From NCBI RefSeq assembly GCF_051903065.1, contig NZ_CP178438.1: a DNA stretch of 64,000 bases; one strand, given 5' to 3'. Made by a program: the position numbers. Positions 3,001 through 9,000 of the stretch are shown one piece after another; position 1 is the first letter of the stretch; the number at the start of each line of letters is the position of its first letter. Source of the DNA: Escherichia coli. GTDB lineage: Bacteria > Pseudomonadota > Gammaproteobacteria > Enterobacterales > Enterobacteriaceae.

Positions 3001-6000
3001 GTAACCTGATCGGTATTTTTAAGGCCTTCGCCTACATTCCAGTCAGCAGCAAGCAGGCGAGAGTCAATCAGGCGACGGCGGGTTTCCGCTTCATCAATAG
3101 AGAGAATATCGGCAACATGCTGGTTACGCGCTCTGGCTTCATTCAGGCGTTGAGTGAGGTGTTCGGCCTTTTCCTGTTCTTGCTGTAGTGCGCGTTGCAG
3201 CGCCAGTTCGCGCTCACGGCTTTCATCCTGAGCCCTGATTGCATCTTCCAGACGTTTTTCATCTGCACGACCTGAAGATTGTGTTAATGGAGGGAGTGTA
3301 AATTTGGGGCAGTCATCAACATTACCGTGGGCGTAGCGAACATACAGCCAAATTCCCAACAAATACGCTTCTTTGAGCAGCCAGTAAGTATCTTTAGCTT
3401 TGATACGTCCGCCGTGCGCGGCACGGTTGCCATGGATACGCAGCGCATCCATTTTCATGATGATGGCTTCCGGCATCATGCTGGTAAAGACATCAGCATT
3501 CATTAAATCGTAAAGATTAGCCTTAATACCTTCCGGCAACCGCTCCTGACGATACAACCAGCGCACCATCAATTCGGTGTAGTTGCGCAGCTTGACCAGA
3601 CAACTTTCCGGATCGGAGTGAACATAGCGTTCCGCCATACACGCGAGTTCAGCCAGTTCCGGCCACTGGCTGCGCAACATTTCAAAATTGAGAGACTGCT
3701 CCATCAATCATCGCCTTATGTCGTGGATACAACAGCATTTCTGGAAAGAATATCACACTAATTTGGCCGACGAAGTGAGCCGGATGGCATATGGTGGTGA
3801 TGTGTTTAACGACATAACTGCTCTAACGGTCAGATCCTTGGTTTTCGCCCATCAATGGGCATCTTCAGCCATGGCTACTCACAGGATACCTTGCTAACCA
3901 ATGAAGGTATGGCTGATCATCTATGGGATATGTTTTTTGAGCCAATAAAACGATGGAGCTTTTCTCCAAGTTCATCATTAATGAATTTTGTTTCAATGCA
4001 TTAATCAACTCTTCGCATTTTCGCTATCTTTTATCCACTTCCCTTTTGAAAAGGTGGGTATCTACGTTACCAATACTGGTTTAATGGCTACATACGGCGG
4101 TCCGTTTACGCTTACGGTAAAGATAAGCGATAAGCTCCCAGCGCTAGGACCGGGAGCTCTGCATAGCTACCACCATTTAGGATAGTCGTTAAAAGCACGT
4201 AATATTGATTGCCTGGCAGCAGGCATCAAGCTTTTCACTTCCTTTTGAAAGGGAGATACCACCATTGATATCTTCCTTCATACATGACCAATTCAGCACA
4301 CCAGCGACTGGATATGGCGGGAAATGGTGGCCCGGGGGTTACAGGCAGTGAAACCATCGTCAGGGATGCTGTTGCCAAATGGCGTAAAGGCTGGAACCCA
4401 CCAGTTACTACTGCCGCCAGACTTCCTTCAGTGTCCCGGGTAAGCCGCTGGTTGATGCCCTGGATAATAATCAGGGGTGAAGAAAATTATGCTTCCCGAT
4501 TTATTAGTCTGATGTGTGAAAAAGAACCGGCGCTGAAAATAGCGCAGCAACTAGTACTTGAGTTCTACCGTATTCTGAAAACCCCAAATAAATCAAATCT
4601 AAGCAGTTGGTTCACTCGAGTCCACGAAAACGGTTCAGCAGAACTTCGGCGCGTGGCTGCGGGGATGGAAGCTGATGCTGCGGCTATATGTGAGGCAACC
4701 AGCAGCCGCTGGAGTAACGGTGTTGTCGAAGGTCATGTAAATCGCCTGAAGATGCTGAAACATCTGATGTATGGTCGAGCCGGATTTGAACTACTTAGGC
4801 AGAGGGTAATGAGTCCACTGGCATGAAAATCTCCACCTAGGTTGCGGAAGAGCCACTTTTGCACCGTTCGTGATAATACCGTAAATAAGCCTCTGAAAGT
4901 TATAGGATATGACACAACTAAAGAAGTCTGTGTGAACCGCGTAATACCAAGTGAATTGCTTGTTATATCTGTTTAATTAAACCTAATCGACCAGCCTTAC
5001 TGGAGAGGCTGGTTAGTGATTAACTGGGAGTATTGCAATTAGATGTGTTCTACAGGCCCACGAAGGTAGATGGCTGCCAGAGTTCATCTTCGCGTGTAAA
5101 AGACTCTTAGTTGATTAATTCTAATTTATCGATCTATTACGCGATCATAATATTCGATGATTTGCAGTGCAACAGCAGCAATTTGTACTGCTTCCTCCCT
5201 ACTGGTACCGGCTGCTTTACCACCAAAACGATCATGGAGGACAGCCTGATGAAATTCTCCCACCTCTTCTCCGAGAATCGCTCCCCAGATAAAAGGATCT
5301 TGATTACGGTCTGCCCCCCATTTGGCATCCTGCCGTTGCATTTCCGCTAGCACGTCAGACAGGGCTTTAGTGTCTTGATGTTTACCTTTCATGTTTCCCT
5401 TACGAATCCGTGATTTTAAGTCCATCATTAACATTTAATATGTGCAGAGTCCATTAATTCGCTACATCTCATTTTGTGAATGAGCGTTGAGTTTGCTATA
5501 AACGTAGCAACCAAGAAAAATAAAAGTGGATAATTTTGTTCATTACCTTTCAAAGCAAGAAGTTAAGGACTATTTGCGAGAGTATGCATGAGGCAAATGA
5601 GATCTTTGGTGACAAAGTGGCATCAAGACTACGCTCGCGACTTTCCGATCTTTCCGTGACAGACAACATATTACTGTTGCCCGTAGGTTCGCCGGAGGTC
5701 TGCTTTGAGGATGGGGAAGAGTGTATTACAATTACCATTCTCGGTGATGTAAAAATGGGATTTGTCTGTGGGAATACAGTTCAGCCCAAAAATCAAGATA
5801 ATACAATTAACTGGTCCCGAGTTAGCCGGATACGGTTAGTGTTCATAGGTGACGTGAAATGATAGTTACGCAGGACTTCCAGCCTGACTGGGTATCTCCA
5901 CCCGGTGATACAATTATAGATCTAATGGATGAACATGGGCTTTCTGGTGAAGAACTGAGTAAGAGGATTGGATTGTCTCTTATCCGGGGTCAGCAACTTC

Positions 6001-9000
6001 TTGAAGGAAAAATCCGACTCAATGAGTCTCTGGCTTGTAAGCTTGAGGAGTTATTCAACGTATCGACAGACTTCTGGATCAAGCGCGAAGTCGCTTATCG
6101 CCAGCAAATTGGATACCTCGAGAAAGTGAATAATGATTGGCTCGAATCATTGCCTGTACGTGATATGATGGAGTTTGGTTGGATCCCCAAAACTACAACT
6201 CGGGAAAGTAAATTCCAGCACTGCCTATCGTTTTTCGGAATAAATTCCGTCAATGATTTTTTTTATAAAATTCAGTCAGATGCTCCTTTGGTCGCTTTTC
6301 GTAAATCTCTTAATCTGGCAACCGAGCCTATGGCCGATTTGGTGTGGCTGACTAGGGCTGCACAACTTACCTCAAACCAAAACTGTGCTGTATGGGATAA
6401 AGAGGGGCTGATAGCATTGTTGCCAGAACTGCGCAAAGCTACAAATGAACCCGACATGAGGATTTTTATCCCTTACATTCGCGACCTTCTCGCCACTGCT
6501 GGAGTTTCTCTCGTTGTGTTGCCAACGCCAAAGGGATGTCGGGCAAGTGGTGCTACCTGCTTTTTTACACCAGATCGCGCAACCCTAGTCATGAGTTTCC
6601 GTTATCTGACCGATGACCATTTTTGGTTTACGCTGTTTCATGAGATTGGGCATCTCATCTTGCATGAAGCTGTCCGAGTTCGCGTAGAAGGTAAAGATAG
6701 TCTTTCGTCGGAAGAGGAAAAGGAAGCAGATAAATTTGCCGTTGATGTTCTTATCCCAGAAGAATACCGGCAGCAACTTAGTCGCTATGGTGTCCGGCAT
6801 TGGAAAGAGATCATCCGGTTAGCTAGGAAAATGGGGGTATCCAAAGGGATCGTACTGGGATATTTGCAGCATGAAGGTAATATACCTTTTTCTCACCTTA
6901 ATCGGTTTAAAGTGAGATTCCGTAAAGAAGATATCGTCTGATATCAGCCGCCGAAATAGACATAACGGTCAGGTGATTTCTGCCAGTTGCACAACGCATC
7001 TTCAATAACCTGCATTCTCAAGTAGGGTGCAGGAATAATTGCCGCAAGGTCAGCTAGTTTTTCATTCAATACGTCTATTGTGTCACCAGCAGTCCGGCTA
7101 TTGCTGAAAAGTAGCCGGCTTCCTTGAAGGGGCCCGGTTGCTCCATTCAGAAAAGCATGACCCGGCTCTACATCCAGAAGTCCCGTTTTCTTGAGCATAG
7201 TTAGGTAATCAAATTTTGCGGTTCGTCCAAATGAGATCACGGCATTTAGCCCTGAATACAATAGTTCGAATAAAGATTCTGGTGAAGATGAAAAGCTCTT
7301 GGCCTCTGCAAACCTAGCCTCATGACTGTGTGTAGCACCAATGAATCCGATGTAAGAGCGAAAAACCGCAGGTATTGAACGACGAGAGTGATATTTCTTC
7401 GTTTCATATTTCCGATGGTTACCATATTGTCTTAGGCTACTGTTAGCTGTCAACTCATCAGAGACGCTGGCGAACCATTGTTCAAAAGCAGCAAAGTCAT
7501 CAGTTATCGTATCCCATGTCCACGTTTGTGTACCGAGTCCACTGTATATATCTCGACACAAAATCCAGCCGGTTTTGTTACTCTTGCCGAAATGTGTGGC
7601 AAGGAAAACCAGCCAGCAGGCTTCATCGTAATTGTTGTCACGAAGATAAAGGCAGGCAGCGCGGAGAGGATCAAAAACATCAGAATTCGGCTCTTTTCGT
7701 AACGGAGTCATATAATCGGTCCGTAATGCAAGAGTTTCCACATAGCGTATACGACGTATACTGTCGATAATCTGACAGGCTAAAACATCAAAGCAGGCAG
7801 GAGAACTTAGGCCATTTAGGTTGTGTTCATTGCGGCTAAAATTTTGCAAATTACTAACCAGCTGACTGATTTGATTATGTCTTTTCATTGTAGTCTTCCT
7901 TCAAAAATAAACCGATATTCCTGATTTTTCATTGCAGCCAACTCTTGGAAGGCTAGTCCTTTGTGGTTGGGTGTATGTGAACGTAACAAAAAGTGGATTT
8001 TTAATATACGCAATAAATCCTTCCAGTAGTCATTCAAGGAAGTAGTGTCAATATCAAATTCCTTATTCTCTCGAAGAGCTTTTTCTGCCTCAAGCAGGGG
8101 TAAGATATCATCTAAGGAATGCATTTCAGGCATCGATCCCATGACTGGTAGGGTGCTCATGAACCCCTCTTTCTGAAGAGCCTTCACTTTTTCTAAATCA
8201 TTTTTATAGAGATGTAGGCTGGATACAAAGTGATGATAGTGACCCAATTCGCATCCTATCAAGCGGGCAACTAATTCCTGTAGCATCGTGAACGCAAATA
8301 CATCATGAGGCAGCCCCATAAAGGCATCGTTAGAACGCATACAAACAAATAGATGCAGCTCTTCACATCTGACAATAAACTGCATAGATATTGTACAAGG
8401 AATATCTACGTATTCTCGCTGTTCAGTTTTTGAGGGCACCAAGTCTGAGGCATCGAAAAGCTGTATTACTGCACGTCTGGTAGGTTTTTTCTCCTGCAAA
8501 AGGTTGATAACATTTTTTAGCTGATTATATAAACCACGCATATTAAACAACCGTGGCCCGTAACCACCATGTATTTTCCCATCTGACTCAGCGGATTCAG
8601 CGTAACGTGGTATGAAGTGTTTTATAAACTCAAGATCGTTCTGAGCTGAGAGATACCACAGAAATTCACCTAAGCAACTAATTAGTTTTCCTCGGGATTC
8701 TGTTCTACTTATTCTTCGGCGGGGGTCGGTAAGGACAAGATAGGCACCAAGAATCTCTAGAGTTGATCCTTTTGTAGGATCGTTACTGAGTCCATCCGCT
8801 AGGATAGCTTGATGAACATCGTTTATCAGATCGTCAACACACTCAGCCGTTACCAAAAGAGTCATTTTCTACCTTTTCCTGTATGGTAGTAACTAATCAT
8901 TACCACCTGTATGGCATATAGTCAATATAGTATCAATATCAACATGGTTCACAGGGTAAGTAAGACTTGATCTTACCCAGCAATAGTGGACACGCGGCTA

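Follow-up and report, generated by a model that had tools for sequence, protein, structure and literature searches.

Within a 64,000-nucleotide (nt) stretch of Escherichia coli contig NZ_CP178438.1, hereafter the window, two overlapping genes, A and B, lie in a defence island, flanked by the genes of a type I restriction subunit on one side and of an anti-phage dGTPase on the other. Gene A encodes a 108-amino-acid (aa) protein with a predicted RelE/HigB fold, and gene B a 360-aa protein in which a HigA-type helix-turn-helix (HTH) is fused to an M78 peptidase. Convergent with B are the genes of an aGPT-Pplase3 protein (Pplase3) and of a pyrimidine-nucleotide hydroxymethylase-like protein, all four genes lying within 5536-8865 of the window. 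The best explanation, to which we assign a probability of about 0.45, is that A and B form a two-protein switch derived from HigB/HigA, which acts as control module within a conserved cassette of four genes, completed by the two convergent enzymes. The cassette itself is probably an anti-phage system, a prediction in which A-B takes the controlling part.

A preliminary description of this DNA had seen in the pair either a standalone abortive-infection module or the regulator of the adjacent nucleotide genes. The connection to those genes is strongly supported by conserved synteny, as described below, and it is the more important half of the finding.

Conservation of the four-gene cassette

Related loci were collected by scanning one genome per species, giving 418 relatives, of which the best 80 loci were analysed and scored with hidden Markov models (HMMs) made from the window proteins; they span Proteobacteria, Acidobacteria, Chloroflexi, Bacteroidota, Spirochaetes, Myxococcota and other groups. 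An open reading frame (ORF) of the A family stands directly upstream of B in 79 of the 80 loci. Pplase3 is present in 61 of them (61 of the 78 whose flanks are informative), and in 58 of these 61 the gene of the hydroxymethylase lies beyond it. The orientation is equally constant, Pplase3 being convergent with B in 60 loci with a median end-to-end gap of 1 nt, within ±20 nt in 58 of the 60, and this tail-to-tail junction spans Proteobacteria, Chloroflexi, Bacteroidota, Spirochaetes and Actinobacteria. The B homologues of Vibrio cholerae (55% identity), Pseudomonas (39%) and Serratia (86%) are examples, each lying tail to tail with an aGPT-Pplase3/ADDT gene that is followed by a thymidylate-synthase-fold gene.

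The association also holds in the reverse direction, from Pplase3 to B, in a small sample of 10 plasmids that were matched by the window Pplase3 in a tblastn search. These plasmids come from Proteobacteria, Actinobacteria and Leptospira, and in all ten the hydroxymethylase and Pplase3 genes are accompanied by a convergent B. An unannotated A ORF was found in all three plasmid loci searched for it (Pantoea, Arthrobacter and Brucella), and in the Leptospira plasmid a small annotated upstream gene overlaps the start of B. Moreover, the pairwise-identity matrices of the four proteins are correlated across 54 loci (r 0.50-0.72, Mantel p 0.001), the correlation between B and Pplase3 being the highest of all gene pairs (r 0.72). 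The synteny of Pplase3 with B looks obligate, and the four genes travel together across phyla.

Regarding variations of the cassette, in many non-enterobacterial loci the Pplase3 and hydroxymethylase genes are separated by one more gene, of about 270-280 aa, which is absent from E. coli. An example lies on the minus strand at 7015-7854 of locus L005, gaps of about 800 nt occur at the same place in many loci, among them L013, L016-L018 and L025-L027, and the extra gene has no significant Pfam match.

Gene A, a small protein of the HigB fold

Gene A (5536-5862, plus strand in the ORF listing) begins with a TTG codon at 5536. This is the sole possible start, because the frame is closed upstream by a TAA at 5521-5523 and conservation in the family is among the strongest at residues 5, 11 and 14. 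The gene is left unannotated by RefSeq/PGAP in the identical E. coli locus. It is missing from three plasmid annotations too (L096-L098), and in phage NatCom_20922 (L090, 2150-2446) a homologous ORF of 98 aa is annotated as two short hypothetical genes.

A is nevertheless a real gene and more than a chance ORF, as seen from three kinds of evidence. The ratio of nonsynonymous to synonymous substitution (dN/dS) among the E. coli, Serratia and Enterobacter sequences is 0.15-0.22 in its own frame vs 1.1-1.8 in the two remaining frames. Among 1.84 billion representatives, a profile search returned 871 clusters related to A at E<=1e-3, nearly all of them of 100-115 aa and matching from end to end, and orthologues of 108 aa with 78-94% identity occur in other genera, including Citrobacter and Serratia. 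The third is an AlphaFold2 model, built on a 95-sequence alignment, with a predicted local distance difference test (pLDDT) score of 94.9, whose top Foldseek matches are all chains of Proteus vulgaris HigB (probability 1.0; target-normalised TM-score 0.68-0.76), followed by YoeB, RelK, YafQ and ParE. The A family, with its 871 clusters and mostly TTG starts, represents small genes that are routinely missed by annotation pipelines.

The modelled structure gives A a RelE/HigB fold, and the sequence relationship is far more distant. A has no match among the Pfam (even at E<=10), NCBIfam, PADLOC and PHROG profiles, and its family profile returned only noise when compared with the sequences of the PDB. 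Five of the 95 aligned family members touch PF05015, the HigB-like protein family, and weakly (1.4e-3 to 0.1); with hhalign, A aligns with a HigB-like protein of that family at a probability of 51% and with HigB at 20%, the latter alignment covering residues 1-77. The link to HigB at the sequence level is weak yet collinear, so that the kinship is one of fold together with a weak profile-profile alignment. The likeness to RelE/HigB toxins proposed in the preliminary description is therefore upheld for the fold (Foldseek, HigB, probability 1.0), and a match to the PF05015 HMM did not materialise.

The essential residues of HigB are His54, Asp90, Tyr91 and His92 (PMC5027501). In an alignment of the 95 members, this catalytic set is not conserved in the A family: the position aligned to His54 is a glutamate in the E. 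coli protein and a histidine in six members, and a C-terminal Tyr-His occurs in two. The family has instead conserved positions of its own, with R11 in all 95 members, besides C14, R35, D38, W93 and R98, and the family-specific N79 and H80 in 75 and 82 members, respectively. In E. coli, Gly-Asn replaces Asn79-His80 while purifying selection is kept, which indicates that the selected role of A in this species is independent of His80.

Gene B, a HigA-type HTH fused to an M78 peptidase

Gene B (5859-6941, plus strand) was delimited from the ORF listing, profile matches and AlphaFold2/Foldseek comparison. It comprises a HigA-type HTH at about residues 15-75 (nt 5901-6083) and an M78 peptidase domain at residues 237-332 (nt 6567-6854) whose HExxH motif lies at nt 6639-6653, with a helical region in the middle, all on the plus strand. 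The strings quoted earlier for the pair, FITFQSKKL in A and HEIGHLILHE and EKEADKFAVDVLIPEE in B, are all found in the sequence, and the fusion of an XRE/HigA-type HTH to an M78 peptidase described from them is confirmed. In Pfam, B matches Peptidase_M78 (PF06114) at 2.4e-10 and HTH_3 weakly, at 1.5e-3, and the NCBIfam HigA antitoxin model at 7.6e-5, under its curated cut-off.

The AlphaFold2 model of B (pLDDT 86.9) agrees with this division. With Foldseek, its N-terminal 75 residues match P. vulgaris HigA, with 27-28% identity and a root-mean-square deviation of 1.2-1.5 Å, and other HigA/GraA antitoxins as well, and for the C-terminal part the matches are CapP of Thauera (7t5t) and PprI/IrrE of Deinococcus (8sln, 3dti). 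H261, E262, H265, H269 and E287 are invariant in the B alignments (20 and 74 homologues of 38-86% identity), as is A290 in the 74 homologues; the conservation of HExxH, on which the preliminary description had made its peptidase assignment depend, thus extends to every homologue aligned, and the metal site of B is intact.

Among defence profiles, the best PADLOC match of B is PD-Lambda-2_B (8.7e-30, 102 bits), which pairs residues 15-341 with profile positions 60-378 of 402. PD-lambda-2, a validated defence system from E. coli ECOR42, is made up of a HigB-like gene, a HigA-HTH/peptidase fusion and a third gene resembling a P4 antitoxin (Vassallo et al. 2022, PMC9519451); there, B alone is toxic, A rescues and C is needed for defence (PMC9519451). 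The RmrA, capP and Lit models match B in the peptidase region only (residues 204-333). The kinship with Rosmer-type antitoxins that had been suggested for B was not borne out, the closest defence match being PD-Lambda-2_B, as compared with about 1e-10 for RmrA over residues 204-333. Rosmerta (RmrT/RmrA) was rejected as an assignment, given RmrA matches of 4e-10 or weaker confined to the peptidase region and no RmrT match in the neighbours.

The convergent enzyme genes

The gene next to B (6944-7888, minus strand) encodes a 314-aa protein resembling aGPT-Pplase3 and amino-acid:DNA transferases, with Pfam matches to aGPT-Pplase3 at 5.5e-90 and ADDT at 1.1e-58. The clades of the aGPT-Pplase family are reportedly those defined by Iyer et al. 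in 2013. A tblastn search of 50,697 phage records gave no match to the window Pplase3. Judged by where its sequences occur (plasmids, chromosomes, several phyla), clade 3 looks bacterial rather than phage, unlike clades 1 and 2. The characterised enzymes of clade 2 put amino acids onto phosphorylated 5-hydroxymethyldeoxyuridine (5-hmdU) in phage DNA (PMC8989533). No 5-hmdU kinase was found at this locus.

The second enzyme gene (7885-8865, minus strand) overlaps the Pplase3 gene by 4 nt and encodes a 326-aa protein of the thymidylate-synthase fold, assigned from NCBIfam and from comparison with relatives of solved structure as similar to pyrimidine-nucleotide C5-hydroxymethylases. Its matches to the NCBIfam thymidylate synthase models all fall under the curated cut-offs. 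The best solved relative is MilA (5b6d, E 1.6e-41), the cytidine monophosphate (CMP) 5-hydroxymethylase of mildiomycin biosynthesis, and thymidylate synthases follow at about 1e-18 or worse; the 326-aa protein keeps the catalytic Pro-Cys motif. As MilA is far closer than the thymidylate synthases, the RefSeq product name 'thymidylate synthase' is probably wrong for this gene. The protein is RefSeq WP_000174035.1, which is listed as a 'Predicted novel defense gene' with log-odds of 7.6 in the DefensePredictor supplement (DeWeirdt et al., Science 2026), a prediction that is unvalidated. The same paper shows a predicted aGPT-Pplase system, likewise unvalidated, which has a known defence gene's homologue among its members and may be this same cassette.

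Gene junctions and promoters

The overlapping pair reported in the preliminary description, with ORFs of 108 aa (5536-5862) and 360 aa (5859-6941), is real. A and B share 4 bp in the sequence ATGA, the ATG of B at 5859-5861 and the TGA of A at 5860-5862, and are translationally coupled; an overlap of 4 or 8 nt is found in 56 of 79 loci. Among 77 loci from many phyla, the homologous start codon of A is TTG in 43, ATG in 19 and GTG in 9. This share of TTG is far above the usual frequency of TTG starts and suggests selection for a low translation of A relative to B.

A putative sigma-70 promoter of A-B was read by eye on the plus strand at 5474-5502, with a -35 hexamer TTGTGA (5474-5479), a 17-nt spacer and a -10 hexamer TATAAA (5497-5502). 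Both hexamers, as well as the AAGTGGATAA stretch ahead of the TTG start, are kept in Serratia and Enterobacter loci, and a consensus promoter scan did not return this site. The scan did return a promoter-like site for the hydroxymethylase/Pplase3 operon on the minus strand at 8896-8925 (TTGACT ... TAATGAT), of which the TTGACT and GGTAATGAT blocks are also kept in the loci of Serratia, Enterobacter and Xenorhabdus; the counts of the promoter and terminator scans are not above those of shuffled sequence. An IS3 insertion starts about 135 nt upstream of the site at 8896-8925. The promoter region of A contains no inverted repeat of at least 8 nt. Two 6-nt palindromes seen there by eye, CTCATT-N5-AATGAG and TTGCTA-N6-TAGCAA, were not called operators, being only partly conserved in Serratia and Enterobacter.

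At the other end of B, the stop codons of B and Pplase3 are 2 nt apart (6941/6944), the two genes being convergent, and the promoter/terminator scan placed no terminator between them. In nearly all of the 60 convergent loci, the 3' ends of the two genes nearly abut or overlap, leaving no room for a terminator. This conserved, terminator-less, tail-to-tail junction suggests that the transcription of one operon may read into the other, with antisense effects possible at the junction.

Genomic setting

Upstream of the cassette lies the gene of the type I restriction R subunit (291-3707, minus strand; PADLOC 1.7e-273), with an ISL3 fragment (4284-4826) between them. A small MazG-like gene (5126-5434, minus strand), divergent from A, is named 'MazG-like family protein' in RefSeq, in an 88-aa version, and matches phrog_24212 at 3.8e-37, a phage family without known function. 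In the 80-locus survey this gene is confined to the enterobacterial loci L001 and L007-L009, and it is placed outside the conserved core because of this restriction. On the other side, an IS3 element (about 9034-10195) separates the hydroxymethylase gene from that of the anti-phage dGTPase (10324-11577, plus strand; PADLOC 1.5e-109).

The 4-kb core at 5000-9000 is covered by at least 80% in 231 of 5426 complete E. coli genomes. Further downstream, at about 12000-17000 of the window, are remnants of a pap fimbrial operon, going by how the matching E. coli locus, L001, is annotated, and in that strain an ISCR2/floR resistance region is also located downstream of the cassette. Both features point to a mosaic island rich in insertion sequences.

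Proposed mode of action and alternative explanations

In the proposed switch, A would bind to B at its HigA-like part, in the manner of HigB with HigA, restraining the protease or the toxicity of B, a role for A taken by analogy from PD-lambda-2, where A neutralises a toxic B. The HTH of B would meanwhile autorepress the A-B operon. A cue derived from the phage would free or activate the protease, which might then cut B itself, A or a host target, and this cleavage would either arrest growth directly or license the hydroxymethylase and Pplase3 to change DNA or the pool of pyrimidine nucleotides. In sum, this would amount to an abortive or replication-blocking anti-phage defence. The toxicity test laid out in the preliminary description took the small ORF as the toxin and the HTH-peptidase as its antidote; that polarity may be reversed, since in PD-lambda-2 it is the peptidase fusion that is toxic and the HigB-like protein that neutralises (PMC9519451), and since A is devoid of the HigB catalytic residues.

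A more elaborate version, which we regard as tentative, supposes that this HigBA-derived protease switch controls a branch of 'phage-type' pyrimidine hypermodification found in bacteria only, its enzymes being a (d)CMP/(d)UMP hydroxymethylase of the MilA kind and an aGPT-Pplase of clade 3. In an infected cell, the nucleotide pool or the replicating DNA would be poisoned or marked, and the TTG start and the terminator-less junction would themselves belong to the control, for example through a fixed A:B ratio and through transcriptional interference at the junction.

Several observations weigh against the control-module explanation. A-B occurs without the enzyme genes in 17 of the 78 informative loci, which indicates that it is able to work, or at least to persist, alone. 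In at least three of these (L058, 3399-9248; L068, 5135-9269; L049, 3607-6962) hsdM lies upstream of A-B, and in L058 the gene overlapping the end of B matches a type I specificity subunit (7e-111), with a similar gene in L068; the interval between hsdM and hsdS is a known position of embedded, self-contained defence genes. Other enzyme-free pairs adjoin PDC-S36 (L086) or a helicase and a methyltransferase (L062), and a second, capP-like M78 peptidase gene follows B in L022 (1350-2297) and L041 (8087-9055), with PADLOC capP matches of about 1e-20. Being found beside other defence genes without Pplase3, A-B is a portable module. The convergent orientation also puts A-B and the enzyme genes in separate transcription units, and no operator common to the promoter regions of A and of the hydroxymethylase was found, k-mers from five species giving nothing consistent. 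Host phylogeny may partly explain the Mantel correlations. Regarding the analogy with PD-lambda-2, the PD-Lambda-2_A model was unmatched by window A or by four diverse family members (PADLOC, E<=1), no co-directional C gene follows B, and no neighbour matches any PD-Lambda-2 model. As to the proteins, the family-specific His80 is kept in 86% of the A family, leaving an RNase activity possible in other members, and the AlphaFold2 model and Foldseek reveal no GAF domain in B, which has about 28 residues after the peptidase, the rest being N-terminal and helical. The GAF domain of CapP and IrrE forms half of their groove for sensing single-stranded DNA (ssDNA). As B is without it, this ssDNA trigger is not transferable to B, and its direct transfer was rejected.

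The enzyme-free loci, with their type I restriction-modification, capP-like, PDC-S36 or methyltransferase neighbours, favour reading A-B as an autonomous abortive-infection or toxin-antitoxin cassette of the PD-lambda-2 kind, with B as a toxic protease, A as its inhibitor and the enzymes as a separate, frequent neighbour or as an accessory like PD-lambda-2 C. The separate putative promoters of the two gene pairs and the toxicity of PD-lambda-2 B by itself (PMC9519451) agree with it. We consider it doubtful in view of the B-Pplase3 junction, kept within ±20 nt in 58 of 60 loci across phyla, of the presence of B at all ten plasmid Pplase3 loci, and of the identity correlation of B with Pplase3, the top one at r 0.72. 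If A were instead a ribosome-dependent mRNA endonuclease and B a DNA-binding antitoxin whose built-in protease sets its own stability, the pair would be a canonical HigBA toxin-antitoxin. The toxin-first gene order as in higBA, the HigB fold of A and the HigA-type HTH of B would all be accounted for, a weak TTG start would hold the toxin below the antitoxin, and R11, H80 (82 of 95 members), R98 and K/R100 of the A family could form a RelE-type site. This is unlikely, as the catalytic residues are not conserved (6 of the 95 members have a histidine aligned to His54, and 2 the C-terminal Tyr-His), E. coli A has lost Asn79-His80 to Gly-Asn and is still under purifying selection, no toxin HMM matches A, and the polarity of PD-lambda-2 is the reverse. 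That CapP and PprI/IrrE are the best structural matches of the peptidase domain, that CapH-CapP fusions neighbouring defence operons are reported (bioRxiv 10.1101/2022.04.27.489752) and that A-B adjoins several different defence systems would fit a purely stress-responsive regulator, a fused form of the CapH-CapP, ImmR-ImmA or DdrO-IrrE kind, which represses its neighbours until its HTH is cut off, A being a modulator and neither protein toxic. Of the readings weighed here it is the least probable: B is without a GAF domain and an ssDNA groove, the genes to be regulated would lie convergent to it instead of downstream or divergent, the promoter regions yielded no operator in common, and PD-lambda-2 B, which is the closer relative, is toxic by itself.

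If the control-module explanation holds, it would offer a way into the mechanism of a predicted defence system that occurs in many phyla and is carried by about 4% of complete E. coli genomes.

Comparison with known systems

The closest known system is PD-lambda-2, compared here through the PADLOC models and through cassettes with PD-lambda-2B-like genes, taken as proxies for RCO93355-7. Both have a small HigB-like gene immediately 5' of a fusion of about 360-370 aa between an Xre/HigA-type HTH and an ImmA/IrrE-type peptidase, and window B fits the PD-Lambda-2_B model over nearly its whole length. Window B also aligns with a PD-lambda-2B-like protein in full length (25% identity, E 8e-24) with HExxH kept, and the A-family HMM matches the ORFs upstream of two phage PD-lambda-2B-like genes (2.3e-15 and 1.4e-4). 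The strong matches of the PD-Lambda-2_B model (4e-49) belong to a very large family in cassettes formed by a PF05015 HigB-like gene of 98 aa, a B gene of 371 aa and a 159-aa gene. The differences lie in the score of B, which reaches 102 bits vs 135 and 166 for two phage PD-lambda-2B-like proteins; in A, which fits neither PF09907, the family of PD-lambda-2 A, nor PF05015, found in the related cassettes; and in the two convergent enzyme genes that stand where C would be. Because A fails the A model and the C gene is absent, the window pair is a sister lineage of the PD-lambda-2 A-B pair and not a member of that system. The cassette of a HigB-fold protein and an HTH-peptidase known from PD-lambda-2 is a portable one, which is here wired to nucleotide-modifying enzymes and elsewhere placed within type I restriction operons.

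HigB-HigA of P. vulgaris Rts1 is the best structural match of both A (HigB) and the N-terminus of B (HigA), and higBA has the same order, with the HigB-like gene first and the HigA-type HTH partner immediately downstream. Unlike HigB, window A lacks His54, Asp90, Tyr91 and His92, and it appears to be about 16 residues longer before the last strand, judging from the alignment of residues 1-77 and the difference in length; unlike HigA, B is extended by about 280 residues that include the metallopeptidase.

CapH/CapP, ImmR/ImmA and DdrO/IrrE share with the pair an XRE-type HTH, an M78 peptidase having HExxH and a downstream glutamate, and ties to defence operons and mobile elements. CapH-CapP fusions are reported beside defence operons, one of them with a toxin-like vapC gene ahead of it (bioRxiv 10.1101/2022.04.27.489752). 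B differs from these systems by having the HTH N-terminal to the peptidase in a single chain, neither a GAF domain nor a cysteine-switch cysteine in the loop after HExxH, and a partner of the HigB fold.

Regarding the enzymes, the validated DS-4 system of DefensePredictor is composed differently, of a thymidylate synthase, a kinase, a hypermodification protein and TIR. The thymidine-hypermodification clusters of phages, which comprise a deoxyuridine monophosphate (dUMP) hydroxymethylase, a 5-hmdU DNA kinase and an aGPT-Pplase/AADT of clade 2, resemble the cassette, together with MilA, in that the neighbouring genes come from the same two enzyme superfamilies. The cassette differs from these clusters by the absence of a 5-hmdU kinase, by a Pplase of clade 3 and by a hydroxymethylase closest to MilA. 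In addition, its genes are carried on chromosomes or plasmids and are linked with a toxin-antitoxin-like pair. The cassette points to a bacterial use of clade 3 aGPT-Pplase, of an enzyme family so far discussed for phage DNA hypermodification only.

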